In this document: positions 1,967 through 33,076 of the stretch, piece by piece
Layout of the letters: each line of letters opens with the position of its first letter
Numbering within the stretch: the first letter of the stretch is position 1
IMG/VR virus record: IMGVR_UViG_3300033144_005150
From: an uncultured virus (IMG/VR IMGVR_UViG_3300033144_005150)
Taxonomy: Duplodnaviria; Heunggongvirae; Uroviricota; Caudoviricetes
DNA length: 64,000 nucleotides
Strand: one strand, 5' to 3'
Program-made: the position numbers and the translations under genes
The notes under the pieces: model-generated
The model's database searches: none
The model's input: only the letters and a program-made list of their open reading frames with translations
What the model was told of the DNA's origin: nothing

Positions 1967-2041
1967 GCCCCCGAGGCCGACTGGAGAGGCAAGAGACTTC
2001 TAATCTCGAGGTGGCAGGTTCGATTCCTGTCGGGGGTGCCA
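1967..2041 (+). tRNA. tRNA-Arg(TCT)
   Basis: Cloverleaf, anticodon loop CT-TCT-AA, encoded CCA. Confidence 0.9.
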
Positions 2042-2088
2042 AAGTCTACAACTACTGGGCGAGACCGAAGACAACGGCTCGCCAATTT

Positions 2089-2179
2089 GGAGTCGTGTCC
2101 GAGCGGTCTATGGTGCTCGGTTGCTAACCGAGTGTGGGTTCATAGCTCACCCAGGGTTCGAATCCCTGCGACTCCGCCA
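2089..2179 (+). tRNA. tRNA-Ser(GCT)
   Basis: Long variable arm, CTCGG-TT-GCT-AA-CCGAG, GCCA end. Confidence 0.95.
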
Positions 2180-2187
2180 AACAACAT

Positions 2188-2275
2188 GGAACCGTGTCCG
2201 AGAGGCTTATGGTGCTCGCTTGGAAAGCGAGTGTGGGTAAAACCACCGAAGGTTCGAATCCTTTCGGTTCCGCCA
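2188..2275 (+). tRNA. tRNA-Ser(GGA)
   Basis: Long variable arm, CTCGC-TT-GGA-AA-GCGAG, GCCA end. Confidence 0.95.
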
Positions 2276-2278
2276 AAT

Positions 2279-2369
2279 GGAAGGCCAAGCAGATGGCTGG
2301 CGACTGCACCTGGTTTGAACCCAGACGAAGTGAAAGCTCTTTGGGGTTCGATCCCCCAGCCTTCCGCCA
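2279..2369 (+). tRNA. tRNA-Ser(TGA), atypical D arm
   Basis: Acceptor GGAAGGC/GCCTTCC, loop TT-TGA-AC, long variable arm, GCCA end. Confidence 0.85.
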
Positions 2370-2419
2370 ACAACTTTTCACCCAGGAGACTCAACAAGAA
2401 CGACGACGAACAACAACTT

Positions 2420-2509
2420 GGAAGATTGGCCGAGTCTGGCTTAAGGCACCTGTTTCGAAAACAGACGTGGGTAAAACCACCAGGGGTTCGAATCCCTTAT
2501 CTTCCACCA
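2420..2509 (+). tRNA. tRNA-Ser(CGA)
   Basis: Loop TT-CGA-AA, long variable arm, ACCA end. Confidence 0.9.
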
Positions 2510-2510
2510 T

Positions 2511-2585
2511 GCGGATGTAGCTCAGGGGTAGAGCGCAACCTTGCCAAGGTTGAAGTCGTGAGTTCGAATCTCATTATCCGCTCCA
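2511..2585 (+). tRNA. tRNA-Gly(GCC)
   Basis: Canonical cloverleaf, TCCA end. Confidence 0.95.
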
Positions 2586-2587
2586 AT

Positions 2588-2663
2588 GCGTGTGTAGCTC
2601 AGTCGGTAGAGCGCTAGCTTCCCAAGCTCGAGGCCGCGAGTTCGATTCTCGCCACATGCTCCA
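2588..2663 (+). tRNA. tRNA-Gly(CCC)
   Basis: Loop TT-CCC-AA, TCCA end. Confidence 0.92.
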
Positions 2664-2678
2664 AAAAGGAACGAAACC

Positions 2679-2960
2679 ATGATCACCATCACCAAAATGA
2701 TCGAGACTTGCGGCGGCTGCCCCTCTCAATGGGACGGCTGGGATGAGGGTGGTGCGTACTTCTACTTCCGCTTCCGACACGGCTACCTCCGGGTAGATGC
2801 TCATGATCCCGATGGCCGGCCCTACACGATCCTCGGCAAAGAAGTCGGCGACAGCATGGACGGCATCATGGGCTACGAAGCCCTCAAGTTTCACCTCGAA
2901 GGCGTCCTGGAACTCCCAGACACCGAATCCCTTCCCGACCAGGACGAGCAAGCATCATGA
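2679..2960 (+). CDS. Hypothetical phage protein (CxxCPSQW...YFRFRHG)
   Basis: AAGGA SD; ATGA overlap with the next ORF. Confidence 0.7.
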   Translation: MITITKMIETCGGCPSQWDGWDEGGAYFYFRFRHGYLRVDAHDPDGRPYTILGKEVGDSMDGIMGYEALKFHLEGVLELPDTESLPDQDEQAS

Positions 2961-3166
2961 GCAAGAAAACCATCACCACCTGGGCCCAGTGCAAGTTTCA
3001 GCGTCTCGACACGGATGCCCACATCGAGACGGTAGCCAACATCGACGCGACACACGCCAAGGTGGGACGGCGCATGACTTTCAAGGGCGTCGAAGGGATC
3101 TGGCAAATCAAACAAGCGGGGCAACCCCGCGAACGTCCCAACTTCGGTTGGGGAGGGATGGACTAA
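2957..3166 (+). CDS. Hypothetical protein
   Basis: Start coupled to the preceding stop. Confidence 0.6.
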   Translation: MSKKTITTWAQCKFQRLDTDAHIETVANIDATHAKVGRRMTFKGVEGIWQIKQAGQPRERPNFGWGGMD

Positions 3167-3220
3167 ACCAATGGGGGCAAGAAACTAAGCAAGAACTTCG
3201 AGAAAGTCCGCTCGGTCGGG

Positions 3221-3598
3221 GTGACGCCCGAAGGCAAACAAGTCATCGGGGGAATTTTCCCCATGGTGAGCTCCGAGGGAATCCTCCTCGAAATCATCGT
3301 CCAGGAAATAGACTCCAAGAACTACGTCGTTGACTGGTTCGGGTTCTGGACAGACTCCGTGGAAAACGGTTGGAACCCGCGATCCACACGAACCAAGATT
3401 CTCAATTGCATAGGAGAGCAGTTCGGACCCGTGGTCCGAGAGCAACACGAGAAGCTGCTCGATCTCCTCTACAAAATCGAGATGACCAAGAAGGATGAAG
3501 ACGATTCCAAGATGAGAGAGCTGCTGCTCGAACACCGAAAACTGGAGCAGAAGGAACAGCGAAAACGATTTCTCAACACACTACACAAGCGTGCGTAA
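3221..3598 (+). CDS. Hypothetical protein
   Basis: ORF track; start uncertain; stop lies inside tRNA-Gly(TCC). Confidence 0.5.
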   Translation: MTPEGKQVIGGIFPMVSSEGILLEIIVQEIDSKNYVVDWFGFWTDSVENGWNPRSTRTKILNCIGEQFGPVVREQHEKLLDLLYKIEMTKKDEDDSKMRELLLEHRKLEQKEQRKRFLNTLHKRA

Positions 3599-3665
3599 CT
3601 CAGTGGTTTAGAGTGTCTGCCTTCCAAGCAGAGGGTCGAGGGTTCGAATCCCTCCGCGCGCTCCA
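3589..3665 (+). tRNA. tRNA-Gly(TCC)
   Basis: TCTGC-CT-TCC-AA-GCAGA, TCCA end. Confidence 0.93.
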
Positions 3666-3666
3666 T

Positions 3667-3819
3667 GTTTTCGTAGTTCAATGCCAGAACAGCCGGATAA
3701 CGCCTCCTTCGCGGAGGGGTGCTCGGGCGGAACAGGGCCGGTCATATCCGCGGATAAAATGACCGGTCACTACCGCTGCAAACGAGTGGCAAATGCGGGT
3801 TGGATTCCCGCCGAGAACA
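3667..3819 (+). ncRNA. tRNA-like RNA with an approximately 95-nt structured domain in place of the anticodon loop
   Basis: Acceptor GTTTTCG/CGAGAAC, D arm GTTC/GAAC, stem GCC/GGC, T arm GCGGG-TTGGATT-CCCGC; insert has nested helices. Confidence 0.65.
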
Positions 3820-3825
3820 ACTTTA

Positions 3826-3905
3826 GGGGTACGGGACTGCAAGGGGTGGTCGCTTGATTTGCACTCAGGAAATACAGCAGGGTTCGATTCCCTGGTACTC
3901 CACCA
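3826..3905 (+). tRNA. tRNA-Ala(TGC), atypical
   Basis: G3:U70 pair, loop TT-TGC-AC, ACCA end; non-standard D and variable regions. Confidence 0.8.
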
Positions 3906-3928
3906 AAACGAAACGAAACGAAACGAAC

Positions 3929-4213
3929 ATGGCCAAAGCAATCGAAATCGACGGGGTCCTCTACCGGAAGCGGAGAGGGAAACTCGTGAAGATCCCTGAC
4001 GAGTGGGTGGGCAAAACTGTGGGTCGTCATGCCAAAAGCAAACGGCACTCCAAGACGAAGGCCAAGCGCATCTACACCGGCATCAACCGAGCGAAAGAGC
4101 ACGACCAGCTCCGACACGACGAAGATCCAAACCCGGCCGAGTCCAAACAGTTCGGTCGCTGGCACTACTGCTCGGGTCGCACCGACCAGTACCGAGACAA
4201 GCACAAGTCATGA
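3929..4213 (+). CDS. Small basic hypothetical protein
   Basis: MAKAIEIDGVLYRKRRGK...; preceded by (AAACG)n spacer. Confidence 0.6.
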   Translation: MAKAIEIDGVLYRKRRGKLVKIPDEWVGKTVGRHAKSKRHSKTKAKRIYTGINRAKEHDQLRHDEDPNPAESKQFGRWHYCSGRTDQYRDKHKS

Positions 4214-4404
4214 GTCAGAAGATCAACTACCGTCGAGATGCGAAGCGCCATCAGGACAACGGACCCACCTACGAAGGTGGCCCTCCGAACTCCGGCTGCA
4301 ACTCGACACACGTCGCCCGATCTCGTCGGGGCTGGCGGAACATCCGGCGTCGAAAGGAACGGCGCCAAGAGCAACAAGAGATCAAGCAGCAAATGGGACA
4401 TTAG
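4210..4404 (+). CDS. Small Arg-rich hypothetical protein
   Basis: MSQKINYRRDAKRH...; ATGA overlap; stop inside tRNA-Ala. Confidence 0.55.
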   Translation: MSQKINYRRDAKRHQDNGPTYEGGPPNSGCNSTHVARSRRGWRNIRRRKERRQEQQEIKQQMGH

Positions 4405-4470
4405 CTCAGTTGGGAGAGCGCCTGCCTTGCAAGCAGGAAGTCGTCGGTTCGATTCCGACATGTTCCACCA
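4395..4470 (+). tRNA. tRNA-Ala(TGC)
   Basis: Canonical cloverleaf, G3:U70, ACCA end. Confidence 0.95.
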
Positions 4471-4594
4471 GCCATGTACGAGAACGAAAACGAAGTATGG
4501 CTTAGCCTCGATTGGGGGGCGCTCGGACGCCTCGGGGTCTATGTAGATCCTTGGCCGATGGGAGCCATCCCACCAAACGACGGAAGATACGAAG

Positions 4595-4969
4595 ATGGAA
4601 ATTTCACGAACACAACTAATCGATCACCTGGGCAGCATGACTGTCATGGAGATGTGCGACCTGACCCGAGACCTTGAGGAGACCTGGGGAGTCTCGGCAA
4701 CGCCGCAGATCACCCAGACCACGGGAGCTCCGACAGGGGAGCCCGCTCCTGAGCAGACCGAGTTCGACGTGATCCTCGAAAGTTTCGGGGAGAAGAAGAT
4801 CCCCGTCATCAAGACGCTCCGTGCGGAGATGCCGGGACTCGGTCTCAAGGAGGCCAAGTTCCTGGTGGAACAAGCACCTGCACCGATCAAGGAAGATGTC
4901 TCAAAGGAAGAGGCTGAAAATCTCAAGGCCGAGCTCGAGAAGGCGGGCGCGACGGTCACGATCAAGTAA
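4595..4969 (+). CDS. rplL: 50S ribosomal protein L7/L12 (bL12), full length
   Basis: N-domain ...[22 protein letters not shown]-domain EQTEFDVIL...KIPVIK...GLGLKEAK...[11 protein letters not shown]. Confidence 0.95.
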
Positions 4970-5001
4970 CGTACAAGCCCCCGATCTTCGCGGGGGCACA
5001 T

Positions 5002-5077
5002 GGGGTGGTAGCTCAGATGGGAGAGCATCGCACTGGCAGTGCGAAGGTCAAGGGTTCGATCCCCTTTCACTCCACCA
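5002..5077 (+). tRNA. tRNA-Ala(GGC)
   Basis: TCGCA-CT-GGC-AG-TGCGA, G3:U70, ACCA end. Confidence 0.95.
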
Positions 5078-5225
5078 GTTTTTTCACTCGCCACAGGAAT
5101 GGTCTTGTGGCATCATGGGTCCTGAGAGAGACCAGCAAATCACTCTCACGGGTCTGAAGCCCGGTAAGAGCCGCAGCCATTTCGGAGCGGTACGGGTAGG
5201 CGAAAGCCAAGGAGAGAGACGCAAG

Positions 5226-5291
5226 ATGGAACACATTCAAGTAAACAAGAACTTCTGGTGTAGCTGGTATCCCACGGGGGAAACCGGGTAA
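5226..5291 (+). CDS. Putative Trp/Cys attenuator leader peptide (21 aa)
   Basis: AAGGAGAG upstream; MEHIQVNKNFWCSWYPTGETG*; TGG-TGT-AGC-TGG at 5256-5267. Confidence 0.75.
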   Translation: MEHIQVNKNFWCSWYPTGETG

Positions 5292-5315
5292 GCACAGCCG
5301 CATCTTGCGCTGTAA

Positions 5316-5345
5316 GCCGCCCGGTCTCTGGACCCGGCGGCTTTT
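5316..5345 (+). terminator. Attenuator terminator upstream of tRNA-Trp/Cys/Trp and trpS
   Basis: GCCGCCCGGTC-TCTG-GACCCGGCGGC-TTTT; its 5' arm can alternatively pair with ACCGGGT at 5283-5289. Confidence 0.75.
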
Positions 5346-5353
5346 CTCGTTCT

Positions 5354-5428
5354 GGGGTATTAGCTCAGCTTGGTAGAGCGGTGGTCTCCAAAACCGCGAC
5401 AGCGGGGGTTCAAATCCCTCATGCCCTA
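5354..5428 (+). tRNA. tRNA-Trp(CCA), G1:U72/A73, no encoded CCA
   Basis: GTGGT-CT-CCA-AA-ACCGC anticodon arm. Confidence 0.85.
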
Positions 5429-5434
5429 CAACAT

Positions 5435-5510
5435 GGCTCGATGGCCGAGTGGCTTTAGGCACCGGATTGCAACCCCGGTTAGATCAGTTCGATTCTGATT
5501 CGAGCCTCCA
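5435..5510 (+). tRNA. tRNA-Cys(GCA)
   Basis: Loop TT-GCA-AC, U73, CCA end. Confidence 0.92.
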
Positions 5511-5523
5511 ATTTCAACTTCAT

Positions 5524-5594
5524 AGGTCGCGGTCTGGGACCGGGCGAGACTCCAAATTTTGCCTAGCAGGGTTCGATCCCCTGGTGGCCTGCCA
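5524..5594 (+). tRNA. tRNA-Trp(CCA), short with miniature D arm
   Basis: A1:U72, G73-CCA, GGTC-TGG-GACC D arm, loop CT-CCA-AA. Confidence 0.75.
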
Positions 5595-5615
5595 ACCAAC
5601 GAAAGGACGGACAAC

Positions 5616-6602
5616 ATGAATCGAATACTGACTGGGATCCAGCCCTCGGGAGAGCTGCATCTTGGGAACTACTTCGGGGCCGTGCAGCCCTGTCTTCGAC
5701 ACCAGGAAAATCCGTCTTCGGATCTCTTGATGTTCATCGCGGACTACCACGCTCTGACGACCGTGCATGACGGGGTCCTTCTTTCAAGGAACTCGCTCAA
5801 CTTGGCCGAGGGCCTCCTCGCTCTGGGAATCGATCCCGAGCAGACGATCCTCTTCCAGCAGTCAGATGTCGAGTACGTCGCCGAGCTGACCCTGTTGCTC
5901 ACGATGGTCACGGGGATGGGCACCCTCCAGCGGTCTCCGTCCTACAAGGACAAGGTTGCCAAGGGGATTACCCCGAGCGTCGGGTTGTTCATCTACCCGA
6001 TGATCATGGCGGCCGACATCCTGCTCTACCAGAGCGACATCGTTCCGGTCGGCAAGGACCAGACCGCGCATGTCAAGATGGCTCGACAGATAGGCACGCA
6101 CTTCAACGAGACGTTCGGCCCCGTGTTCAACCTCCCCAAAGCCGTCCTCTCCGAAGTCCCTAAAGTGCCCGGTCTCGACGGGGAGAAGATGAGCAAGAGC
6201 TACGGCAACACCATCTCCGTGTTCGATCGCGGAAACACCCTGCGGGCCAAACTCGCCGGCATCAAAACCACCTCAACCCCTTTCGGAGAACCACTTCCCA
6301 TTGACGACTGCCATCTTTTCGAGCTGATCAAGCTCATGTGCTCCACCAGCGCCGAGCTCGAGGAAGTCACCCAGTTTTTCCGGACAGGCCGACGTGGCTC
6401 CCAGAAGTTCGGATACGGCCACGCCAAGGAGCTGCTGGCCGAAAAGATCGAAACCACTTTCGCCGAAGCGAATGAGCGCCGGCAGGATTTTCTCCCCCAT
6501 CGCATCGAGGTCATAGGAGCCCTGAGTCAGGGCGCGACCAAAGCACGGAGGATCGCAAAGGAAACCCTCGACAAGTGCCGATCCCTCTGTGGCATCGGCT
6601 AA
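5616..6602 (+). CDS. trpS: Tryptophanyl-tRNA synthetase
   Basis: TGIQPSGELHLGNY, YPMIMAADILL, VPVGKDQ, KMSKS motifs. Confidence 0.95.
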   Translation: MNRILTGIQPSGELHLGNYFGAVQPCLRHQENPSSDLLMFIADYHALTTVHDGVLLSRNSLNLAEGLLALGIDPEQTILFQQSDVEYVAELTLLLTMVTGMGTLQRSPSYKDKVAKGITPSVGLFIYPMIMAADILLYQSDIVPVGKDQTAHVKMARQIGTHFNETFGPVFNLPKAVLSEVPKVPGLDGEKMSKSYGNTISVFDRGNTLRAKLAGIKTTSTPFGEPLPIDDCHLFELIKLMCSTSAELEEVTQFFRTGRRGSQKFGYGHAKELLAEKIETTFAEANERRQDFLPHRIEVIGALSQGATKARRIAKETLDKCRSLCGIG

Positions 6603-8116: not shown

Positions 8117-8287
8117 TTTTTCGTTCCTGTTCTCTCAAATGTGAGAGGTCTACCAAGTGTTATACGCGAAAACTTTTGGGTTTTCGTGAAACTCAGCTTT
8201 CGCCGTTCGAGAAGCCTTTGAGGCTCTGGGTGTGGGTTCCTTCGTTTGGTCCCGATGGGGCTACGACTGGTGGGTACAAGTGGAGAG

Positions 8288-8923
8288 ATGGCCGATCAAG
8301 ACGCCCCCAAGCCCGAGAAGCAGATTCCACCTTTGCGACAACGACCCTGTGTCGTCATCGACACCGAAACGACCGGTCTCGATCCCAAGATTCACGAAGT
8401 CCTCGAAATCGCCATCGTGGCCCTCGACGGCACCGTGCTCCTGAACACCAAGATCAAGCCCGTGAATATCGAGGCGGCCCATCCGAAGGCGCTCGAAGTC
8501 AACGGCTACAACGAGGCCGACTGGGCCAACGCTCCGACCTTCGATGAGACCAAAGACGAGATCATGGCGGCGCTCAAGCACAAGATCCTGGTGGGTCAGA
8601 ACCCCCACTTCGACCGCAGCTTCATCGTCGAAGCGCTGGACCGGTGTGGCGTCGAGAAGGCGTACCGCAAGCTCAGCTACCATGCGATCGACACGATCAC
8701 CCTGGCGTGGGAGCACCTGGCTCCGTGCGGGCTCGAACGCCTCAACCTCGACGCCATCTGCGAGTTCCTGGGGGTCCCCCTCGACCGTGAATCTCGGCAC
8801 GGGGCCTTGGCAGATGCCCAGGCAGCGCGTGTCGTGTACCTGATGACCTTGCGTGCGACCGAGGAGCTCCGGCTCGCATGGCGTCAACGCGCCAAAGACC
8901 TGGGTCTCCTGACCGTAGATTGA
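8288..8923 (+). CDS. DEDDh 3'-5' exonuclease (DnaQ-like)
   Basis: IDTETTG, GQNPHFD, HGALADA. Confidence 0.9.
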   Translation: MADQDAPKPEKQIPPLRQRPCVVIDTETTGLDPKIHEVLEIAIVALDGTVLLNTKIKPVNIEAAHPKALEVNGYNEADWANAPTFDETKDEIMAALKHKILVGQNPHFDRSFIVEALDRCGVEKAYRKLSYHAIDTITLAWEHLAPCGLERLNLDAICEFLGVPLDRESRHGALADAQAARVVYLMTLRATEELRLAWRQRAKDLGLLTVD

Positions 8924-12346: not shown

Positions 12347-12584
12347 GGACTTCGTCAGTTTCGGCCGCCCATGTACTTGACGCAGTAGTCCATGAACTCC
12401 GGAGGGTCCATGCGCTCGAACTCATCGCAGCGTGGTTCTTGGTGAAAACACGCACGTATCCATCGCGCTCGATCCACTTACCTTCCCATGCCTTAAGTCC
12501 GCATGGGCAACTGAACTCGGTCACATTGACGAGTTTGATGTCCCCGAGGCCCTCCACGGTGACGGTGGTTTCGGTTTCCGTCAT
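12321..12584 (-). CDS. Hypothetical protein
   Basis: GGAG-preceded ATG overlapping the ARH stop; MTETETTVTVEG... Confidence 0.55.
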   Translation of the reverse strand: MTETETTVTVEGLGDIKLVNVTEFSCPCGLKAWEGKWIERDGYVRVFTKNHAAMSSSAWTLRSSWTTASSTWAAETDEVRAPDRSSD

Positions 12585-13765
12585 GACTCCTCCGAGGTCC
12601 GGCTTGCCTCCCAAGCTGCCAGTCGTTCGGCGTACTGGCTTTCCACGATGCCGTGCATGGTCTCGGTCAGCTCGCCCAAACCTTCCCAGGTCCACTGCTC
12701 GGCCTTGATGTCGTGGACGACGGGGGCGACGTGTTCGAGCACCTCTTTCGGGAACTTCTCGACCCCGATGTTGGCCCCCACGATGGTCGCAGCCATGGCC
12801 GCGATGGTGTCGGAGTCTCCTCCCACGGCGATGGCGGTCGTGATGGCCTTCCACACGTCCGTAGGAGCCGCCATGACGCAGTAGAAAGCCCACAGCGTCG
12901 AGCTGCGCGCCCAGGGGCTCACGCCCTCCCAGGAGGCGTCGTCGCCTTCCAGGACGAAGTCACGGGCCGCTGCGAACTCGTCGTCTCCGGCCTTCCACTT
13001 GACCGTCTTGCGACCGTCCCAAACGATCTTGGTCAGATCACGGATGTCCTGGGCGAATTCCTCGTGGTTCGTCTGGACGTGGGCCGCCAGCCAGTTCCAC
13101 CAACCGGGCTCGTGCGGGCCCGTGGTGCTCTCACTGGCGGTCAGCGCCATCGCGGTCGCCACGGCCATACCCACTCCAGCCGCGACGGATATCGGAGCCT
13201 TGTGCGTGATGATGGCTTGTTCGGCTGCAGCTTTCACGCAGGTCGGAACGTCGTGGTAGTAGAACATGCCGATCGGGCCAGCTCGCATGGCGGCTCCGTT
13301 GCCGGCTCGAGGGGGCGGAGTTCCGGCCTCGTCCCAGGGCACACCGTCGAGCAGACGGATGGCCGCTTGTTGGGTGGCTCCTCCGTATCCCACGATGGCG
13401 TCCTGAGCGAAGAGTTTGGCCACGCGATCGGCGAAGTCCTGGGGCACGAACTCGTTCTCATCGATCAGGGAGATCATGAGCTCCCGGCTGAGTTGCGTGT
13501 CGTCGGTGTACTGGCCGAAGCGCATCCCGTGGTGGTGTGTCCCGATGCTGTCGAAGTCGAACTCACCGAGGGTGGCTGCGAAGTCACGGGCCTCTGAGGC
13601 AGGGCGACGTTCGGCCCAGGCGCCCACGGAGTCTCCGAGCGCACAGCCAAGGAGGGCACCTTGGTAGCGGCTCAGGGAGGCTGGAGCGACGGGAGGGATG
13701 GCGTCTGGATCGGGTCCGATGGTGCGGACTTCGTTAGCCGGGGTGTGGATGCTTCGTACGTTCAT
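12581..13765 (-). CDS. ADP-ribosylglycohydrolase (DraG/ARH family)
   Basis: GALLGCALGD, YTDDTQ, GNGAAMR, GDSDT. Confidence 0.92.
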   Translation of the reverse strand: MNVRSIHTPANEVRTIGPDPDAIPPVAPASLSRYQGALLGCALGDSVGAWAERRPASEARDFAATLGEFDFDSIGTHHHGMRFGQYTDDTQLSRELMISLIDENEFVPQDFADRVAKLFAQDAIVGYGGATQQAAIRLLDGVPWDEAGTPPPRAGNGAAMRAGPIGMFYYHDVPTCVKAAAEQAIITHKAPISVAAGVGMAVATAMALTASESTTGPHEPGWWNWLAAHVQTNHEEFAQDIRDLTKIVWDGRKTVKWKAGDDEFAAARDFVLEGDDASWEGVSPWARSSTLWAFYCVMAAPTDVWKAITTAIAVGGDSDTIAAMAATIVGANIGVEKFPKEVLEHVAPVVHDIKAEQWTWEGLGELTETMHGIVESQYAERLAAWEASRTSEES

Positions 13766-14024
13766 GTCTGTTTCGTTTCGTGGCTTCGTCAATGCAATGT
13801 TGACGAAACTCGGGGTCACTGTGGTAGCGGTCGTGCTTGCGGTTTCGTTCGGTTTCCCGAATTTGATCGCCGTTCTTTTCCTTGTACTTGGCCTGCCGCA
13901 CCGAAGCCTCGAACCGGTTGCATTCGAGACAGATGTTGCGAGGGCGACGGGTGCCCTTCGCGTCCTTGTAGAACGCGAAGGTTTCGTCGGGTCCTTCGTG
14001 GGGGCAGTGCAAGCATTTTCTCAT
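13734..14024 (-). CDS. Small zinc-finger protein
   Basis: CLHC...CLEC followed by a basic helix; ATGA overlap with the nrtR stop. Confidence 0.6.
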   Translation of the reverse strand: MRKCLHCPHEGPDETFAFYKDAKGTRRPRNICLECNRFEASVRQAKYKEKNGDQIRETERNRKHDRYHSDPEFRQHCIDEATKRNRHERTKHPHPG

Positions 14025-14731
14025 TCGGGAAACTTGTGGAGTCGGGCGGGGCGGCCGGCTCCGGTCGTCTCTTCGAGATCCTCAGTTTCCAGGATCCGGC
14101 CATCTTCCACCATACGCTTGAAGCGCTTGTTGAAGTTGGACGAATCGTACGTCGTGCCCTTGCAGATTTCGTGGACCCGGCGGAACTGGGTGATCGTGAA
14201 TTCACTCGGCAGCAGGGCTCGGGCGAGGCGTGGGTCGTAGTCCACTTTGCCCCGAACGCGCTCGATTGCCGTCTTCATGATCAGGTCGTGGTCGAACGCC
14301 ATCTCAGGCAAATCTTCCACGTCGTACCACGCAGCTTCGACGGCATCGTCGCCGGCCTCGACACGGTGATACGCCTCGGGGGAGATCAGCGCGTAGTAGG
14401 CGACGGTGAAGACGCGGCCACGGGGGTCGCGCCCAGGGTTGCCGAAAGTGTAGAGCTGCTCGAGGAACACCTGATCGCGTTCGCGCTGGAGGTTGGTCTC
14501 CTCCAACAGTTCACGCTCAGCAGCCTCTTCCAGGGTTTCACCTTGGTTGCCACGGGGCTTGTGGCCGACGCCGACTTCGACGAAACCGCCGGGGATGGCC
14601 CAGCTTCCCTTGTGGGGATCGTCGCGTCGTTGGATCAGGAGAACCTTGAGGGCTCCTTTGCGGATCGTGAAGATCGCCATGTCCACGGTGACAGCAGGCA
14701 GGGGGTAATCGTACTCGTGCTTCTTGCTCAT
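14021..14731 (-). CDS. nrtR: NrtR-type regulator (Nudix domain plus winged helix)
   Basis: PAVTVD, PGGFV...RELLEET, EQLYTFGNPGRDPR, FDH, C-terminal NFNK...GRPA. Confidence 0.88.
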   Translation of the reverse strand: MSKKHEYDYPLPAVTVDMAIFTIRKGALKVLLIQRRDDPHKGSWAIPGGFVEVGVGHKPRGNQGETLEEAAERELLEETNLQRERDQVFLEQLYTFGNPGRDPRGRVFTVAYYALISPEAYHRVEAGDDAVEAAWYDVEDLPEMAFDHDLIMKTAIERVRGKVDYDPRLARALLPSEFTITQFRRVHEICKGTTYDSSNFNKRFKRMVEDGRILETEDLEETTGAGRPARLHKFPE

Positions 14732-15297
14732 GATGCTTTCTCGGTCTTCTGGTAGAGGTCGTGGATCTCGATGTAGCGGGCAACCTTGGGGCACACCAGA
14801 TCTTTCCAGGTAGCGTCCCCGGTTCGGACCTTCTCTCGAATCTGCGTGGAGTGGGTGCCCATGTTCGGAGCCTCGAAGAATCCGAACTCATCGCGGATCT
14901 CCTGCACGCCTTCCCACTGATCGAGTTCTTCGATGATGTCGGGGCCGATGACGAAACGGAACTCGCCTTCGCCTTCGTCCATCGCCTCGCACACTTTCGC
15001 CAGGAAGCGCAAAACCTTGATGGTGAAAAGAGGTGCCTTGATTCCCTCTTGGAGCATCTGACGTTCGATCGGGAGCACCTCGACAGGGATGGCCCATTCG
15101 CCGCTCCAGACCGCGAGTTCGGCCATGTTGAGCCGATGCTCGAAAGGGAACTGCTCCTTCTTGAGAGGGTGCGCCACCGAAGGGATGACGAAGATTTCGT
15201 CGAACTCGCCGGAGGCCCCGATGTGCCGAAGCACGTCACGGTGTTGATTGCCGAAGGGGCTGAAACTGCCCCCGTAAACTGCGATGCGTCGGTTCAT
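14728..15297 (-). CDS. nadD: Nicotinate-nucleotide adenylyltransferase (NadD-like)
   Basis: IAVYGGSFSP...H, HPLKK, R.NM..LA, FVIGPD...LDQW, HSTQIR. Confidence 0.85.
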   Translation of the reverse strand: MNRRIAVYGGSFSPFGNQHRDVLRHIGASGEFDEIFVIPSVAHPLKKEQFPFEHRLNMAELAVWSGEWAIPVEVLPIERQMLQEGIKAPLFTIKVLRFLAKVCEAMDEGEGEFRFVIGPDIIEELDQWEGVQEIRDEFGFFEAPNMGTHSTQIREKVRTGDATWKDLVCPKVARYIEIHDLYQKTEKAS

Positions 15298-15299
15298 GG

Positions 15300-15515
15300 T
15301 CAGTACCCCGGTTCTTTGTAGTTGTCCCAGTTGGTGCTCAGCGTCGCACCTTCGGGGAGCAGGAGTTGAACGGCCTTGTGGGTCTTGGCCTCGAGTTCGC
15401 TGTTCCGTTTGGTGAGCTCTTCGCATCGCTGCTCCGAGGCGGCCAACTTCCGTCTGGTGTCGGCCAGCTCCATTTCAGTGGTGCGCAGCTTTCGGCGTGT
15501 CTCGTCGATGTTCAT
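15300..15515 (-). CDS. Small coiled-coil protein
   Basis: Coupled ORF within the operon. Confidence 0.55.
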   Translation of the reverse strand: MNIDETRRKLRTTEMELADTRRKLAASEQRCEELTKRNSELEAKTHKAVQLLLPEGATLSTNWDNYKEPGY

Positions 15516-17203
15516 TTCATCTTCATCCTGTAGAGCTTGTTGCCCCGGAAGAACTGGAGCTGGCCCTGGTTTTTCACGAGCCGCATGTCACCACCGAGCA
15601 CCGGGTCCTCGATGGTCTTGACCGAGGTTGAGCCCTTGCGGGACGAGAAGAGCTCGATCTGCTCGTCTTCGTTGAGGCAGACGCACACGCCCGAGTCGAG
15701 CGTCACGAAGTTCAGGCCGGTCGCGGTCACGTCCTCGACCTTGCGCACGTCGTAGCTGGCGTAGTCCTTGTCGAAGCGAAACACGAAGCGGTGGTACTTG
15801 CCCTTCTCGGCCGCGACCACCATGAGCACACCGCTGTCGAACTTGGCTTCGACGATCTTGTACCCCTTGAGTTCGGACACGTTGAACTGGTAGCAGGCGC
15901 CGGGACGCGGGAACAGACTGACGTGGGGCTCTCCCAGAAGGCTCTGGATGGCGACCCCTTCGTAGAGCCGGCAGGCGTTCTCCAACACGTTGGCTGCGAG
16001 CCGAGCGCCCGCGACCGTCTTGTTTCCCGCCTGGGTGAACGTGAGTTCGAGAATCTGATCTCCGTTGCGGATGTAGATCGTCTCGCCCGTGGACATCATC
16101 TCGTCTGCGTTGAGCGTCAGATCGAGAGGCTGCTGCGTGGTGACGTTGACGGGTGTCACCGTGTTCGAGTTGGGTGCCGGGAACACCACGATGGGATGCC
16201 CGTGTTGCGGCGTGAACCCGATGGTCGGTGCGCCTTTCCAGACGCCGACCTTGCGTTTGTCCAGGTAGAGATCGGTGCCCGCGTGGACGACCATGTGGCC
16301 CCCACCGACGAACACGGCTCGGATCTCGTTCTGGAACTCGTGGAGTTCGGTGATGTCGAAATTGTTGGTGCCGCTGATTTGACGAAACACCGGACGGATC
16401 GTGATGACACCGTGGAGCCCGGTAGGTGGCTCGACGCGTTTGCCGTCCACGAACATGGCTTGAAACCAATCGCGGTAGATGTCTGGAATCACGTCGAACG
16501 GGTAAGCCACTTTGGGCACCCTGACACTCGAATCGAACACGGAGACGTTGGCTCCCATGCGCGCCTCGAATCCCTTGAGGGTCGGGTGCTTGCCCTTGAA
16601 CGGGTGGATGCCGACGAGCAGTTGGAAGCTGACGATGCCGAACGAGTACCAGTCCGACAGGGACGTGAAATCGACGCCCTGGACGAGTGGGTCCTGAACG
16701 GAAGGCATGATAGCCGTCGCGGGGTAGCGGGCCGTCTGGTAGCTGTCCACGTCGATGAAGTACGGGGTCGAGAAATCCTTGCTCACCAGGAAGTTCATCT
16801 CGTTGAGATCCACAATGAGGACCCCGGCCTTGTGGACGGCCTCGACGCCTTCCTGGAGCTTCCGTACGAGCTTGATGGCCATGTCGTGGGTGAAACCCTC
16901 CCGCTCACGGAACGCCCGTGGGAAGAGCTGACAGAGTGTCCAGGCGTCCTTCACGAAGCGGAAGGTGTGGCCGACGTGCTGTCCCTTCTGGCCCTTGTAG
17001 AGCGCGTCCTGGGGCCTGATGACGTTGGGGTCGGAGATGCCCGACAACTCCTGGATCTTGCCCACGGGGATGGCCCGTTTGGGATCGTGAAAAATCTTGT
17101 AGCCGGTCTGACCACGAGCGTAGACCTTCCCCTCACCACCTTCGGCGACGAAGTGGGTCTTGGTCAGGTTGACCTCTGGCTGCCCTTTGATGAAGACCTT
17201 CAT
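15512..17203 (-). CDS. Ser/Thr protein kinase (TerY-P/YegI-like)
   Basis: EGGEGKVY, KIF, IVDLNEMNFLV, IDVDSYQ, GIHPFKG. Confidence 0.88.
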   Translation of the reverse strand: MKVFIKGQPEVNLTKTHFVAEGGEGKVYARGQTGYKIFHDPKRAIPVGKIQELSGISDPNVIRPQDALYKGQKGQHVGHTFRFVKDAWTLCQLFPRAFREREGFTHDMAIKLVRKLQEGVEAVHKAGVLIVDLNEMNFLVSKDFSTPYFIDVDSYQTARYPATAIMPSVQDPLVQGVDFTSLSDWYSFGIVSFQLLVGIHPFKGKHPTLKGFEARMGANVSVFDSSVRVPKVAYPFDVIPDIYRDWFQAMFVDGKRVEPPTGLHGVITIRPVFRQISGTNNFDITELHEFQNEIRAVFVGGGHMVVHAGTDLYLDKRKVGVWKGAPTIGFTPQHGHPIVVFPAPNSNTVTPVNVTTQQPLDLTLNADEMMSTGETIYIRNGDQILELTFTQAGNKTVAGARLAANVLENACRLYEGVAIQSLLGEPHVSLFPRPGACYQFNVSELKGYKIVEAKFDSGVLMVVAAEKGKYHRFVFRFDKDYASYDVRKVEDVTATGLNFVTLDSGVCVCLNEDEQIELFSSRKGSTSVKTIEDPVLGGDMRLVKNQGQLQFFRGNKLYRMKMK

Positions 17204-17439
17204 GGGGTCACCTGGGTGCAGGTTGCGGGTTCGTGGGGTGCGTACCAGTCTCCACTAGGGGTTCGTTCCGGAGCCGGCTCGGGGGTGCCAGCGCCCGGAG
17301 AAACCTGCCGAACTTTGCAGACAGAACATACGGCGAAGGGTTGGCCTGCCGTATGTTGGACCCACTGATGCGGACCCGTGTAAGGGTTTGGATCCGGGTT
17401 CCCCGAAGTGAAAACCTGGATATTTCCTCCGCTAGACAT
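17200..17439 (-). CDS. Small hypothetical protein (CxxC)
   Basis: Fills the gap between phosphatase and kinase with overlapping ends. Confidence 0.5.
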   Translation of the reverse strand: MSSGGNIQVFTSGNPDPNPYTGPHQWVQHTAGQPFAVCSVCKVRQVSPGAGTPEPAPERTPSGDWYAPHEPATCTQVTP

Positions 17440-18307
17440 TGGGGTCCTCCATCCAGATGGCGGCGGCTGAGAAATCGTCGTAGTGCTGCCAGTTGTGGGT
17501 GACGCAGTGACGGGTGAGGAACTTGTGGCACCGGCGCTTGAGGAACTCGCCTTTGGTGCCTTTGATCTTGAGAAGATGACGGACTACCTCTTCCATTGGG
17601 ATGTCCACAAGGTTACGGCTCGTGCCGTCCTCGACCATCTGTTGGAACGTCTGGACACCGTCGGACAGCACCATTACGAGATCGTAAGTCTCGGCGTCGA
17701 AGAACCAGTCATCGGGGTGACCGTTAAATTCGGCGTAAAGGCTCGGCTCCCATCCGTCCTTGGGGCGGTCGTGACCGAACTTGGAGGCGTACGTTCGGAC
17801 AGCGCTCTTGTCCCCGAACTTTTTCATGTAGCCTTCGAGACGTTTTGAATCCAGATCGTAATTCAAATACTGGGGGGCGTTGTGTTCGTGGTCGATGGTG
17901 AAAATGAAAAAATCACCGTCTCGCATCCGAGCAACAACAACGCCGTCGCCACGCATCGAAACCTGGACGCCTTCCTTGCCGTCCTTCTCGACTCGGTACG
18001 CAGCAACGACGGTGGCATCCAGAGCCCGATTACCGACCTTGGCAGCGGACAAGGCCATGTAGGCGTAGTTCGCTGCGGTATTCATCACGCGGTCCGCGGA
18101 GTACCTCCCAGTGCAGAGATCCTCGATTTGGAATGCCAGGGAGGTCGCCAAGGCACGAGCCCCGATGTCGGTGTCTGGAGACGAGGAGCAACCGTCACAG
18201 ACGATCGCGTACGGGTGACGGTCGTCGGTGAACCCCGCACGAGCGTAGTCCTCACAGACCATGTGGCTCTTCCCAATGGAGAAGAAAGCATCGGCGTTCC
18301 ACCCCAT
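17432..18307 (-). CDS. PP2C-like phosphatase (YegK-like)
   Basis: GKSH..CEDY, VCDGCSS, LSDG, DDFS. Confidence 0.88.
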   Translation of the reverse strand: MGWNADAFFSIGKSHMVCEDYARAGFTDDRHPYAIVCDGCSSSPDTDIGARALATSLAFQIEDLCTGRYSADRVMNTAANYAYMALSAAKVGNRALDATVVAAYRVEKDGKEGVQVSMRGDGVVVARMRDGDFFIFTIDHEHNAPQYLNYDLDSKRLEGYMKKFGDKSAVRTYASKFGHDRPKDGWEPSLYAEFNGHPDDWFFDAETYDLVMVLSDGVQTFQQMVEDGTSRNLVDIPMEEVVRHLLKIKGTKGEFLKRRCHKFLTRHCVTHNWQHYDDFSAAAIWMEDPNV

Positions 18308-18759
18308 TAGAGCACCCCCAGTTTCTGGAGACGCTCGGCGTTCTCCCGTCCGTAGGGACCTTCGAGGAGTTTGTAGATCGGCCCCCATTCGACGGGTGCC
18401 TCGTGCTCTGCGACCTTGAACGTCTCTGGGAGATCCATGCCGGTCGTATCGAGCAGGTAGAACGTGGTGAAGTAGCCACCCGAATCGAACAGTGTGCCCT
18501 GGGTGATGAGCCGTGTTGTGGGCACCGGGTAAAGCCCGTCGCGACGTGTTGACTGCTTGAGATCGATACCTGTCTCTTCAAGGAGCTCCCGGCAAGCTGC
18601 GAGGGGACTGCTCTCTCCAGGATCGACCTTTCCTCCGGGGAGGCTCCACTTGGTGTTGTCGTCCTTGCGGGCGACGAGCACGGCTTCCCACTTCCCCTCC
18701 ACGTCGGAGTTTTGACGAAGGACGATGATGGCGACGGCGAATCTGGCTGGAGTGATCAT
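18307..18759 (-). CDS. Nudix hydrolase
   Basis: Nudix box PGGKVDPGE...ACRELLEETG. Confidence 0.9.
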   Translation of the reverse strand: MITPARFAVAIIVLRQNSDVEGKWEAVLVARKDDNTKWSLPGGKVDPGESSPLAACRELLEETGIDLKQSTRRDGLYPVPTTRLITQGTLFDSGGYFTTFYLLDTTGMDLPETFKVAEHEAPVEWGPIYKLLEGPYGRENAERLQKLGVL

Positions 18760-19010
18760 GGTTTAGGTGGGTCGGTGAATTGGTCGAAGAGTTTCTGCGC
18801 CAGGGCCTTGAGCCCCTTGGCAGCGTCGATGGCGTGCTGTGCGGTTTTCGTTCCCCGCCACCATGCCGCGATCTTGTTGGTGTCTCGATCTTGGTAGACG
18901 ACGCAGAGGTACTCGATTTTGCCGCTCGTCGCCTTGTCCAGAAGGCCCACCAAAAGAGCAACGGTCTGCTCCTTGGAGGTGTCCTTCACGTCGGTGGGGA
19001 TTCCAGCCAC
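18756..19010 (-). CDS. Hypothetical protein
   Basis: Coupled ORF with GGAG SD. Confidence 0.55.
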   Translation of the reverse strand: MAGIPTDVKDTSKEQTVALLVGLLDKATSGKIEYLCVVYQDRDTNKIAAWWRGTKTAQHAIDAAKGLKALAQKLFDQFTDPPKP

Positions 19011-19017
19011 AAGGCTC

Positions 19018-19758
19018 CTAGAACGACAGGCTCTTGCTCGGGCCTCCGGTGCCGAGCGCCTGTGACTGGGACGAGATGGACCGGCTCACGAAGTCCGCCA
19101 GCTTGGCCAGGGTGCTCGCCTTGGCGTCCCCGAGTTCGATGTACTGGGTGAACCCTGCGTTGGTGTGGAGGTCCTTGAGGTACTGGCTGATCGTCGGGTC
19201 CTGGACATTGACGCCGACCAGGATCGAGACGATGGATTCGAGCGCCTCGGACTTCACGGCTTCGGCGAGGACACGCTTGACCTCGCTCGGGGTCATGGTG
19301 GAACGGTTGTCCAGCCCATCCGTGACGACGATGACGATGCCGTTCACGTCGAAGTCGTTGTCGGACAGGTCCTTCCCGTAGGCCGTGATCGACTCGGCCG
19401 CATTGCAGGCGGCGTCGTACAACGCCGTCATGCCACCGACCTGGATGCAGTCGGTGTAACCGTCCACGTCACACTCGGTGAGGGGCCGATACCCGTGGAT
19501 CTCCTCGAGATTCGAGTCGAACGCGGTGAGGCGCATCATCAGGTTGTCGGCCCGTGGCGAGTGCTGACACGCTTTGACGACTTCCTTGACGCAGTCTTCG
19601 ATTGCGAGTCGGAAGGAGTCGATGCTCCCGCTCTTGTCGCTGGCCAGAGCGACCAGGGTGTACTCGGTGGCTCCGAGGTCTTCGACACGCTTGGCCGAAA
19701 ATCCGTAGTGTGAGCCCTTGAGCTTCTTGGCTTCCATTCCATCTGTGAAAATAGGCAT
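19018..19758 (-). CDS. vWA domain protein (TerY/YegL-like)
   Basis: MIDAS DKSGS, TALYDA, VTDG. Confidence 0.85.
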   Translation of the reverse strand: MPIFTDGMEAKKLKGSHYGFSAKRVEDLGATEYTLVALASDKSGSIDSFRLAIEDCVKEVVKACQHSPRADNLMMRLTAFDSNLEEIHGYRPLTECDVDGYTDCIQVGGMTALYDAACNAAESITAYGKDLSDNDFDVNGIVIVVTDGLDNRSTMTPSEVKRVLAEAVKSEALESIVSILVGVNVQDPTISQYLKDLHTNAGFTQYIELGDAKASTLAKLADFVSRSISSQSQALGTGGPSKSLSF

Positions 19759-19814
19759 GATTTTCTCGTTTCTGTATTCGTGTTTCTGTGTTCGTGTGAA
19801 TGAGGATGTCCAGC

Positions 19815-20633
19815 CTACGCGGCCAGGAAATCCGCCGTGGTGCTGAGGCGCATACCCCTGGACTGCATGTCCTTGAGGAACGCTGCCACCTTGCTGGAGA
19901 ACATCGTGGTGTTCGGAGGATCGGGGATCACCGAGCAGGCGTCCGTGAGGAGCACCATCTTGGCGATGTACTTGGGGTCGGTGAAGTGTGTGGCAATGTC
20001 CTCGACCGTCGAGAGCAGGCAGTGGCTCAGGGCCTCACCGCTCAGGAGGATGACATCGGCTTCCTCCAGTGTCCCGATGAACTTGGTGTTGACCTGGGTG
20101 GTCGGGTCCTCGGGGTCCGGCACCTCGGCCTTGACGCCGGAGAAGTGTTCGGTCCACATGTTGGAGCCCTTGGTGATGTAGTCGGCCTGGGCGAACCGCT
20201 CCTCCCACTCGTGGACCGCACCGAGGAGGTCCGGCACGACGTTGTGGCCTGCGTCGCTGATGAGGCAGTGCTCGGGCCACACGACGTGGGGGTAACGACC
20301 ACTGGCTTCCAGGGCCTCCAGGTACGCTTTGGTGCGGGGGAAGAAGCTCGGGAGGTGGGTAGTCCACTTGCCGTCTTTCAGGTCCTGGGCGGTGATGATG
20401 GTGAGGGGGGCCGGGCGCTTGCCGCTCGAGTCCTTCCACCACAGCGGGTGGCTGATATCGACCTTGCGGTGCGAGTCCAGCGTGATGTGGATGTCGGCGA
20501 TCTTGGGACCCAGGCGTTGGATCATGCCGCCGAGGCGCTTCATGTCCTCCTCTGCGCCGGGGACGTACAGGCTGCCGTTGGGGTTGCAGAAGTCTTCTTG
20601 GGGGTCAATTACGACTAGATGTATGCGGTTCAT
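19815..20633 (-). CDS. pncA: Nicotinamidase (isochorismatase fold)
   Basis: IDPQEDFC, LDSH, WPEHC, KG, GEALSHC. Confidence 0.85.
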   Translation of the reverse strand: MNRIHLVVIDPQEDFCNPNGSLYVPGAEEDMKRLGGMIQRLGPKIADIHITLDSHRKVDISHPLWWKDSSGKRPAPLTIITAQDLKDGKWTTHLPSFFPRTKAYLEALEASGRYPHVVWPEHCLISDAGHNVVPDLLGAVHEWEERFAQADYITKGSNMWTEHFSGVKAEVPDPEDPTTQVNTKFIGTLEEADVILLSGEALSHCLLSTVEDIATHFTDPKYIAKMVLLTDACSVIPDPPNTTMFSSKVAAFLKDMQSRGMRLSTTADFLAA

Positions 20634-20644
20634 GGGGTCTTCTC

Positions 20645-21496
20645 CTACTTGGTTGAGGGAAACTGGACATGTTTCCAGGTTTTACGTTTGACGACGAATA
20701 CGATGGTGCCGTCCGAAACACCAAAGCGTTTGGCGAGACTACGGATCGTTTCGCCGTTGTGGTGGGCCAGAAGGATCTCTTGAACCTTCTCTTCGTTCAG
20801 TTTTGCCCGGTAGTGTTCGGAGCCTTTCTTTCGCTTGGTCTCGTGGCCTTTGAGGTAGGGGATGGATTTACCTTTCTCCCGAGACACCGCAATTTCGACG
20901 GGCCATTTCTCAAGCCGGTATTCCAGAGCTTGAGGGGTGATGCCGATTTCTTCGGCCCACTGCACCAAGGGTTTGGTCGTCTCTCCAACAGTCAACATGC
21001 GCGTACGCGACGTGTTGCGAGCTTGCTCTTTTGGTGTTGCCCACCGCACGTTGCCGGGTTCGTAGTCACCGTCATTGTCGATGCGGTCGAGCGAATGACG
21101 AGCAGAGGGGCGCGGCCCCATGTCAGCGTAGAAGTCTTTGAAACTCGCCTTCCACCGATCACACACATGAACCCGTCCGGCGTAGTTGTGGAACTCCTGA
21201 TGCCGGGGGTTGGAGCACCGACCTTTCATGTTGGTCCAGATGCGGTACTCAGGCCGGTAACTGGGAGCGACTTCCAGGTCTTGTGTCGGCCCACCACCCT
21301 CTACTTCTTCCAGTTCATCGAGGTTGTAGACCCGAGCCCACGCCCCATGTTTGTGCGAGAAAAATCCAACGGGGCACAGCCAGACGTGGTCCTTCTTGAA
21401 CGGATCACTCAAAGCAACCCCCGAGGAGACCGCTCTGGCACGGGATCTTCGGCCGGTTTGTTGGGTCAGGTGCACAGTAGTTCCTTTTTTGATCAT
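20645..21496 (-). mobile_element. Free-standing HNH homing endonuclease with C-terminal HTH
   Basis: W.NMK.RC.NP, HSLDRIDNDGDYEPGNVRWAT; lower GC than flanks; sits between nadE and pncA. Confidence 0.85.
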
Positions 21497-21522
21497 GGTG
21501 TATTCTCCCCGTAGGAAGAATA

Positions 21523-22593: not shown

Positions 22594-22596
22594 CGT

Positions 22597-32998: not shown

Positions 32999-33076
32999 CC
33001 TATAGCCTTGCTACCGAAATCGGCCCTCCGTTTTCGTTATCGAGGCTATGGGGTCCCCTTACGTGAGAACTGCACG

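Follow-up and report, generated by a model that had tools for sequence, protein, structure and literature searches.

The window, by which we mean the whole 64,000-nt stretch of DNA that was analysed, is part of a large phage-like genome with a GC content of ~0.59. ARAGORN identifies 14 tRNA genes, which share the + strand and lie within 1967–5594; 11 of them exceed the Rfam cut-off and 13 have an encoded CCA end. Within this array lies a further tRNA-shaped gene, here called X, whose anticodon loop harbours a structured insert of 80 nt. Its tight packing between tRNA-Gly and tRNA-Ala, pointed out in an earlier note on this DNA, is borne out by intergenic gaps of 1 nt and 6 nt. The locus comprises the following features.

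3589–3665, + strand: tRNA-Gly(UCC) with encoded CCA, the upstream neighbour, ending 1 nt before X (ARAGORN; RF00005, 71 bits)
3667–3819, + strand: X, tRNA-shaped gene of 153 nt including discriminator A3819 (sequence, MFE fold)
3667–3673, + strand: 5′ strand of the X acceptor stem, pairing with 3812–3818 in seven pairs, U·G at 4:69
3676–3690, + strand: D arm of X, 4-bp stem GTTC/GAAC with loop AATGCCA (fold)
3692–3701, + strand: 5′ strand of the X anticodon stem, GCCGG (3692–3696), and 5′ part of the loop, AUAAC (U33, then AAC) (ARAGORN intron mode)
3702–3781, + strand: 80-nt insert, missing in the contig of a relative in run X5, unchanged in runs X2 and X4
3703–3717, + strand: hairpin 1 of the insert, CCTCC/GGAGG stem with a 5-nt loop
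3734–3771 (about), + strand: hairpin 2 of the insert, a long rod with a 9-bp core (3736–3744/3760–3768), AAA bulge, 4-bp top, and CGCG loop
3782–3794, + strand: 3′ part of the X loop, ACGA, 3′ strand of the anticodon stem, GUGGC (3786–3790), and variable loop AAAU (ARAGORN intron mode)
3795–3811, + strand: T arm of X, 5-bp stem GCGGG/CCCGC with loop TTGGATT, G at position 56 (fold, ARAGORN)
3812–3818, + strand: 3′ strand of the X acceptor stem (sequence, fold)
3826–3905, + strand: atypical tRNA-Ala(UGC) of 80 nt with G3·U70 and encoded CCA, starting 6 nt after X (ARAGORN; 22.3 bits in Rfam against a cut-off of 29)

The array has other irregular members. The tRNA-Ala(UGC) at 3826–3905 has an unusual D arm and a variable loop of 6 nt, and a second, ordinary tRNA-Ala(UGC) is located at 4395–4470. 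A run of the 5-nt unit GAAAC fills 3906–3925 between the former gene and the next ORF. At 5524–5594, ARAGORN but not Rfam recognizes a second, 71-nt tRNA-Trp(CCA), which overlaps the listed start of a synthetase ORF (5559–6602).

The acceptor stem of 7 bp, the TA linker (3674–3675), the D arm, and the T arm named in the earlier note can each be read from the sequence, as can the proposed GCC/GGC anticodon stem, in which 3692–3694 is complementary to 3788–3790 and a G·U pair lengthens the core. A3691, between the D arm and the anticodon stem, occupies position 26, and AAAT at 3791–3794 constitutes the variable loop. The standard tRNA tertiary-contact positions U8, A14, A21, A26, A15/U48, G53-C61, and A58 were checked in the sequence of X, and all of them are in place. 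X has the RF00005-type scaffold of a 7-bp acceptor stem, D arm, T arm, and elbow contacts, while the 5-bp anticodon stem with a 7-nt loop is lacking and 89 nt lie between 3696 and 3786 instead. The entire gene folds with an MFE of −66.3 kcal/mol (z −3.75), a stability reached by none of 200 shuffled sequences, and this fold retains the acceptor, D, and T arms. X occurs once in the window according to R1, a covariance model built from X. Its anatomy, that of a tRNA gene whose anticodon loop holds a structured insert of 80 nt, is real and clearly beyond chance. No CCA is encoded, A3819 being followed by ACT.

The elbow of X is unusual in that the D loop contains GC where ordinary tRNAs carry G18 G19. 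Together with G56 in the T loop, this swaps the 19:56 pair to C:G. The same combination recurs in other tRNAs: among 57 IMG/VR loci that share the 15-mer of the X T arm, all 11 ordinary ARAGORN tRNAs with the T loop TTGGATT (G56) carry GC rather than GG in the D loop (L022, L027, L028, L032, L034, L039, L040, L041, L051, L055, and L059), and they cover seven tRNA identities. Since 11 of 11 tRNAs with this T loop share the GC, the elbow of X follows the 19:56 covariation rule and represents a swapped pair, not damage.

Folded alone, the insert adopts two hairpins (z −2.76; 6 of 500 shuffles equally stable), and its own helices bring its two ends together. The apex of hairpin 2 is a 12-nt palindrome. 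Both hairpins are found in the MFE fold of X and in all 15 listed suboptimal folds (of 51 within 3 kcal/mol), while their connection to the anticodon stem varies between near-equal folds (−66.3 versus −64.7 kcal/mol). Four inner helices had been proposed in the earlier note. Complementary strands exist for all of them, and CCTCC/GGAGG and GCCGGTCAT/ATGACCGGT form in the MFE fold, whereas GCTCG/CGAGT and GCGG/CCGC form solely in a nested alternative; as the latter lies just 1.6 kcal/mol above the MFE, the inner topology of the insert region is unsettled. Neither sequence search nor covariance model R1 finds a second copy of the insert in the 64-kb window.

X corresponds to no known Rfam family, an outcome in keeping with the earlier note, which had proposed this comparison. 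Rfam 15 yields no family over the insert at gathering thresholds, nor at E ≤ 10 on 3560–3930, where the comparison took in tRNA, group I intron, tmRNA, riboswitches, and small ribozymes. RF00005 does not match X even at E ≤ 10, and ARAGORN in default mode makes no call. Both tmRNA and YrlA-type Y RNAs resemble X as non-decoding RNAs with a tRNA-like module inside, and both identities were rejected. For tmRNA, a G3·U70 pair is expected while pair 3:70 of X is U-A, the ARAGORN tmRNA mode at an 80% threshold is empty, Rfam scores do not exceed 13.5 bits over the searched region or 9.4 bits inside X, and no tag frame is seen by eye. The match to YrlA/Y RNA (RF02553), a family in which a Ro-binding stem accompanies a permuted tRNA-like module, reaches 20.9 bits against a cut-off of 69 and is an artefact, because it bridges two adjacent tRNAs, taking in the tRNA-Gly T arm and the D arm of X. 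A riboswitch and a small ribozyme were likewise rejected by their Rfam scores. X was also rejected as a paralogue of a neighbouring tRNA, since half alignments against the 14 tRNAs reach at most 9/35 and 12/38. Internal 5-mer and 7-mer repeats, seen by eye, were dropped as being close to chance expectation, and a promoter and terminator scan gave nothing exceeding shuffles.

In intron mode, ARAGORN passes over X at its default threshold but, once this is lowered to 80%, reports a tRNA-Val(AAC) whose 82-nt intron occupies the canonical 37/38 site. The intron comprises 3703–3784 or, equivalently, 3702–3783, because a G at both borders permits the cut to be written equally at the canonical 37/38 site. 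Excision creates the 7-nt loop AUAACGA (U33, G37, A38) on the stem GCCGG/GUGGC, which contains one G·U pair and one G·G mismatch. The earlier view that excision gives no clean anticodon arm is therefore correct for the stem with its mismatch but not for the loop, which is canonical in the ARAGORN call at 80%. X might accordingly be read as a true intron-bearing gene, from which 82 nt would be removed by a phage or host endonuclease and a ligase or by a tiny self-splicer to produce a working tRNA-Val(AAC). We consider this rather improbable, even though the site is canonical and the ends of the insert are juxtaposed by its own helices.

Known group I introns are far larger than 80 nt, and their borders follow the rule that U closes the 5′ exon and G stands at the 3′ end of the intron. 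A group I intron was rejected for X: neither Intron_gpI nor any other ribozyme matches at E ≤ 10, and the last base of the 5′ exon would be C, or G if the equivalent register is used. The introns of archaeal and eukaryal tRNA genes are recognized by their endonuclease at a bulge-helix-bulge, consisting of a 3-nt bulge, a 4-bp helix, and a 3-nt bulge. This type was rejected as well, as a script scan detects no such motif at the exon borders, the best candidate, with 4 of 6 flanking pairs, lying elsewhere. Moreover, the gene content looks bacterial (L7/L12 and a RecA-like protein in the window), and no protein-dependent splicing of tRNAs is known from bacteria. A Pfam scan of the 61 ORFs of the window reveals neither an RNA ligase nor a splicing endonuclease, and the spliced product would retain the G·G mismatch and is called only at the lowered threshold.

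The identity elements of the predicted product are mixed. An excerpt from PMC9976931 gives A73, A35, and C36 as valine identity elements in E. coli, with G20 and G45 as minor elements and regular 3:70 and 4:69 pairs. X carries A73 and an AAC that is followed by the insert, but also C20, A45, and U·G at 4:69, a comparison made by E. coli rules. Thus, A73, A35, and C36, along with the loop AUAACGA and its U33, G37, and A38, agree with valine identity as described in that excerpt and favour an intron, while U·G 4:69 and C20 disagree with the E. coli rules (PMC9976931).

The presence of the insert was followed in public reads by aligning Logan contigs of four runs to 3400–4100 at 80% likeness. Insert-bearing contigs occur in run X2 (3424–3768 and 3766–3967, abutting within the insert), run X3 (3721–3844, part of the insert-bearing form), and run X4 (3671–3905, with the whole insert in one contig). 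None differs from the window, so that insert and flanks are identical across these contigs, which come from two studies other than that of the probable source run X1. Outside the insert, the contig of run X3 departs from the window past 3844, inside tRNA-Ala 3826–3905, and a contig of run X2 is 5 nt shorter in the GAAAC run. The stretch is contained in 22 listed public runs, which are labelled as metagenomes of marine sediment, seawater, cold seeps, and hydrothermal vents, with none listed as an RNA run.

A different form is present in run X5, whose type, DNA or RNA, is unrecorded. Here, a contig of 271 nt (depth 56.2) joins 3701 straight to 3782, skipping 80 nt with no letters between the two sides. 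Its left side corresponds to 3639–3701 with nine differences, including T>C at 3669 and 3670, and its right side comprises 31 nt. The relative represented by it is 86% similar to the window. A second contig covers the neighbouring ORF at ~88% identity and a depth of 57.6, and since the depths match (56 versus 57.6), we read both contigs as one related phage. In a further, near-identical contig (1 difference in 118 nt), the exact match starts at 3782 and is preceded by 35 unlike letters; two contigs of this run consequently break at 3782. The insert-bearing form itself has no depth at 3712–3759 in run X5.

Because this relative has the same gene without exactly these 80 nt, 3702–3781 is a discrete optional module in a tRNA gene, and either X has acquired it or the relative has lost it. 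The left edge of the gap, 3701|3702, coincides with the left intron edge of ARAGORN, which speaks for a true intron. However, the natural gap measures 80 nt and not 82, and the joined form, read with the letters of the window since 2 of the 9 differences of the relative are known, would have a loop of 9 nt rather than 7. With bacterial group I and archaeal or eukaryal 37/38 intron-bearing tRNA genes, X shares an interruption of the anticodon loop at or next to 37/38, a 7-nt loop upon excision, and an insert-less allele in a relative; it differs from them in having no group I core, no bulge-helix-bulge, a bacterial-type gene content, and a size of 80–82 nt. The insert-less allele is equally compatible with a disabled gene, an intron, and a purpose-built scaffold RNA.

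No insert-bearing homologue is found in IMG/VR, JGI metagenomes, GTDB genomes, or GenBank phages. In the last of these, blastn at distant sensitivity with 3560–3930 as query retrieves 77 records, which match the flanking tRNAs solely and never X. An exact scan of IMG/VR with the 19-mer of the X D arm gives 0 loci, and in the 57 loci retrieved with the T-arm 15-mer the likeness to X ends no more than 5 bases past the pattern. Combining D loop, a gap of 96–126 nt, and T loop yields 47 IMG/VR loci, 0 with matching stems, whereas a gap of 20–50 nt, as expected for insert-less forms, yields four loci attributable to chance. The JGI metagenome scan returns 55 loci, 0 of them X-like, and does not recover the window itself, while a 20-mer search of the GTDB genomes gives three chance matches with flanks unlike X, one of which resembles coding sequence. 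Without an insert-bearing homologue, the insert is left without covariation support or a sign of selection. Searches by synteny through the neighbouring 94-aa protein reach just two loci in IMG/VR, also when an alignment serves as query, and no GenBank phage; the upstream ORF gives no match. Within a limited full-text set of the literature, insert-bearing tRNA-shaped RNAs in phage tRNA arrays are not described.

A syntenic tRNA array was recovered in a single relative, a 230-kb IMG/VR phage (G001), whose counterpart of the 94-aa protein encoded downstream of X shows 61% identity. The order of its array is the same (Arg, Ser x4, Gly x3, Ala x3, Trp, Cys), and X is absent from the site, because tRNA-Ala(UGC) starts 3 nt past tRNA-Gly(UCC). 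Nor is X detected elsewhere in G001, where covariance model R1 and the T-loop 9-mer each have 0 matches. G001 encodes at least 31 tRNAs in several clusters. Its single tRNA-Val(GAC) lies in another cluster on the opposite strand, and its tRNAs with A34 include Leu(AAG) and Arg(ACG), which lends some plausibility to a spliced tRNA-Val(AAC) in a related phage. Since G001 is devoid of the gene and the relative in run X5 of the insert, both are dispensable in relatives.

This pattern of absence is also what a disabled gene would leave. Here, a tRNA gene, either Val(AAC)-like or odd-looped, would have suffered a recent insertion of 80 nt and make a useless product or none, the intact scaffold merely reflecting youth. 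We regard this as unlikely on balance but as a serious alternative, for it fits nearly as well as an unspliced RNA. Beyond the insert-less allele and the absence of X from the syntenic array, it accommodates the lack of variation among the insert-bearing contigs, the lack of an encoded CCA in X compared with its presence in 13 of 14 neighbours, the G·G mismatch in the anticodon stem, and the U·G 4:69 and C20 that are contrary to E. coli valine identity as given in the excerpt cited (PMC9976931). Contrary to what such an insertion suggests, the insert is compact and folds alone, unlike random sequence (z −2.76, 6/500 shuffles), the 64-kb window offers no other copy and hence no evident mobile source, and the insert-bearing form recurs in runs of several studies.

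A further argument against a disabled gene comes from a separate family of tRNA-shaped RNAs of ~135 nt, unrelated to X, which was found by the T-arm scan in eight IMG/VR phage contigs with seven distinct sequences. Its members are located as follows.

L177, 215–351: ~135-nt family member on an IMG/VR contig
L179–L184, 168–304, − strand: ~135-nt family members on IMG/VR contigs
L185: ~135-nt family member on an IMG/VR contig

These RNAs are built from an acceptor stem, a short D arm with a GC-type loop, a 7-bp stem enclosing ~75 nt, and the T loop TTGGATT. RNAalifold reports six pairs altered on both sides, and an extra, perfectly covarying helix is seen by eye (column 33 U/C versus column 83 A/G), which is possibly a pseudoknot. 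The family has no match in Rfam, and the intron mode of ARAGORN makes inconsistent calls on it. Its conservation with compensatory changes indicates that phages maintain tRNA-shaped RNAs with a replaced anticodon arm, and thereby RNAs of a build like that of X. Common to both are the acceptor stem, the GC of the D loop, TTGGATT, a structured domain that replaces the anticodon arm, a phage origin, and a position outside Rfam. In contrast to X, the family has another inner domain on a 7-bp stem and no variable loop, and it is conserved while X is a singleton. By BLAST, the first four members share with X the 15-nt T-arm pattern used to fetch them and nothing more, apart from one weak 14-nt match in L005.

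It is highly improbable that X is not an independent RNA gene and that the insert is instead a recombination scar, a protein-binding palindrome, or part of a small ORF, with leftover flanks. The 12-nt palindrome at the apex of hairpin 2 and the break of two X5 contigs at the same coordinate, 3782, would be compatible with an element acting at the DNA level, and X is spanned by two ORFs, of 58 aa on the + strand and 87 aa on the − strand. Neither ORF, however, shares even three 5-residue words with any protein in a collection of 5.8 billion clusters, no integrase or transposase is seen near X in Pfam scans, and the flanks form a complete tRNA body, not a fragment.

We tentatively favour, at somewhat less than an even chance, the reading that X, as part of the tRNA array of a huge marine phage, yields a processed, unspliced, and non-decoding tRNA-shaped RNA cut from the transcript of that array. 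X would be transcribed together with its tightly packed neighbours. Owing to its intact elbow, acceptor stem, and D and T arms, it is proposed to be a substrate of RNase P and of the enzymes that process tRNA 3′ ends, which would release a stable RNA of ~153 nt. The insert would stay in, leaving an RNA that has no usable anticodon loop and does not decode. While the tRNA body would supply processing and stability, the insert may act as a self-contained structured module on the anticodon stem, for example by binding a host or phage protein that recognizes the tRNA shape.

An unspliced RNA of this kind is supported by the intact scaffold, the lack of an Rfam match, and the lack of a known splicing signal, and also by the elbow pair, the tight packing in the array, the bacterial-type gene setting, the self-folding optional module, and the precedent of the ~135-nt family. 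On these grounds the scaffold-type ncRNA claimed in the earlier note gains partial support, while its novelty as a functional RNA lacks an insert-bearing homologue and covariation to back it. The roles that the earlier note offers as examples, those of a tRNase decoy, an aptamer carrier, or a ribosome-binding RNA, are conjectural. Several points count against an unspliced RNA. Gene and insert are dispensable in relatives, the insert-bearing contigs show no variation, the intact scaffold could mean a recent insertion too young to have decayed, the encoded CCA is missing, and the insert sits at the classical tRNA intron site, where excision gives a canonical 7-nt loop and favours an intron. A bolder proposal is that the 80–82 nt constitute a new type of phage tRNA intron, protein-dependent or a minimal self-splicer, which is optional and gives rise to a working tRNA-Val(AAC); in a milder version, X would be an unspliced natural tRNA scaffold displaying a two-hairpin decoy or binder. 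We deem this proposal a long shot, slightly less probable again than the plain intron described above. X is a moderately interesting lead and not a discovery, as neither an insert-bearing homologue nor an RNA run turned up in the searches.

Two further known systems come close to X. RNAC of phage T4 measures ~140 nt and is processed like a tRNA. In an excerpt from PMC3014915, RNAC and RNAD (species 1 and 2 RNAs) are portrayed as small stable RNAs of the tRNA gene region of T4 that are neither tRNA nor mRNA and whose roles are unknown. Like these two (PMC3014915), X lies within a phage tRNA cluster. X differs by its full cloverleaf body and its anticodon-loop insert, and the likeness is drawn by description, not by sequence or structure. 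In engineered tRNA scaffolds, the anticodon loop is replaced by another RNA, which is processed and stabilized by virtue of the tRNA body. According to a partial text of PMC3753655, such scaffolds serve recombinant RNA expression; they resemble X as tRNA bodies that carry a foreign structured RNA. They are laboratory designs, however, while the arrangement of X is natural and its RNA putative.

The tRNA sets of huge phages are large, and X bears on the role of their odd members. As a working RNA, X would offer a natural parallel to the engineered tRNA scaffold, and X and the conserved ~135-nt family would then indicate a broader class of tRNA-shaped phage RNAs that is so far uncatalogued. If X is spliced, it would represent a type of tRNA splicing unknown in bacteria. 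If X is a dead gene, it would record the gain and loss of members in phage tRNA arrays. The presence or absence of 80 nt between related phages makes the question testable in existing marine metagenomes and metatranscriptomes.

Several other genes of the window deserve mention. Inside or just past the array, ORFs at 4595–4969, 5559–6602, and 8246–8923 encode a bacterial-type ribosomal protein L7/L12, a class I Trp/Tyr-type tRNA synthetase, which is annotated as trpS in distant phage matches, and an RNase T-like exonuclease. A ribonucleotide reductase is encoded as well. An NAD-related cluster on the − strand (12581–24081) comprises an ADP-ribosylglycohydrolase, a Nudix protein with an NrtR-type domain, a cytidylyltransferase-like (NMNAT-like) protein, and an NAD synthase; it also contains a weak PHROG match to nicotinamide phosphoribosyltransferase, and a protein kinase and a PP2C phosphatase are interspersed. 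The C-terminus of a 548-aa ORF (33008–34654) matches the fusellovirus VP2 family (PF25632, E 1.8e-10), a DNA-binding family of archaeal viruses, in an otherwise bacterial-looking genome. Further downstream, a RecD2-like helicase (53041–56715) and a RecA-like recombinase (59758–62439) each contain an intein with a LAGLIDADG domain.
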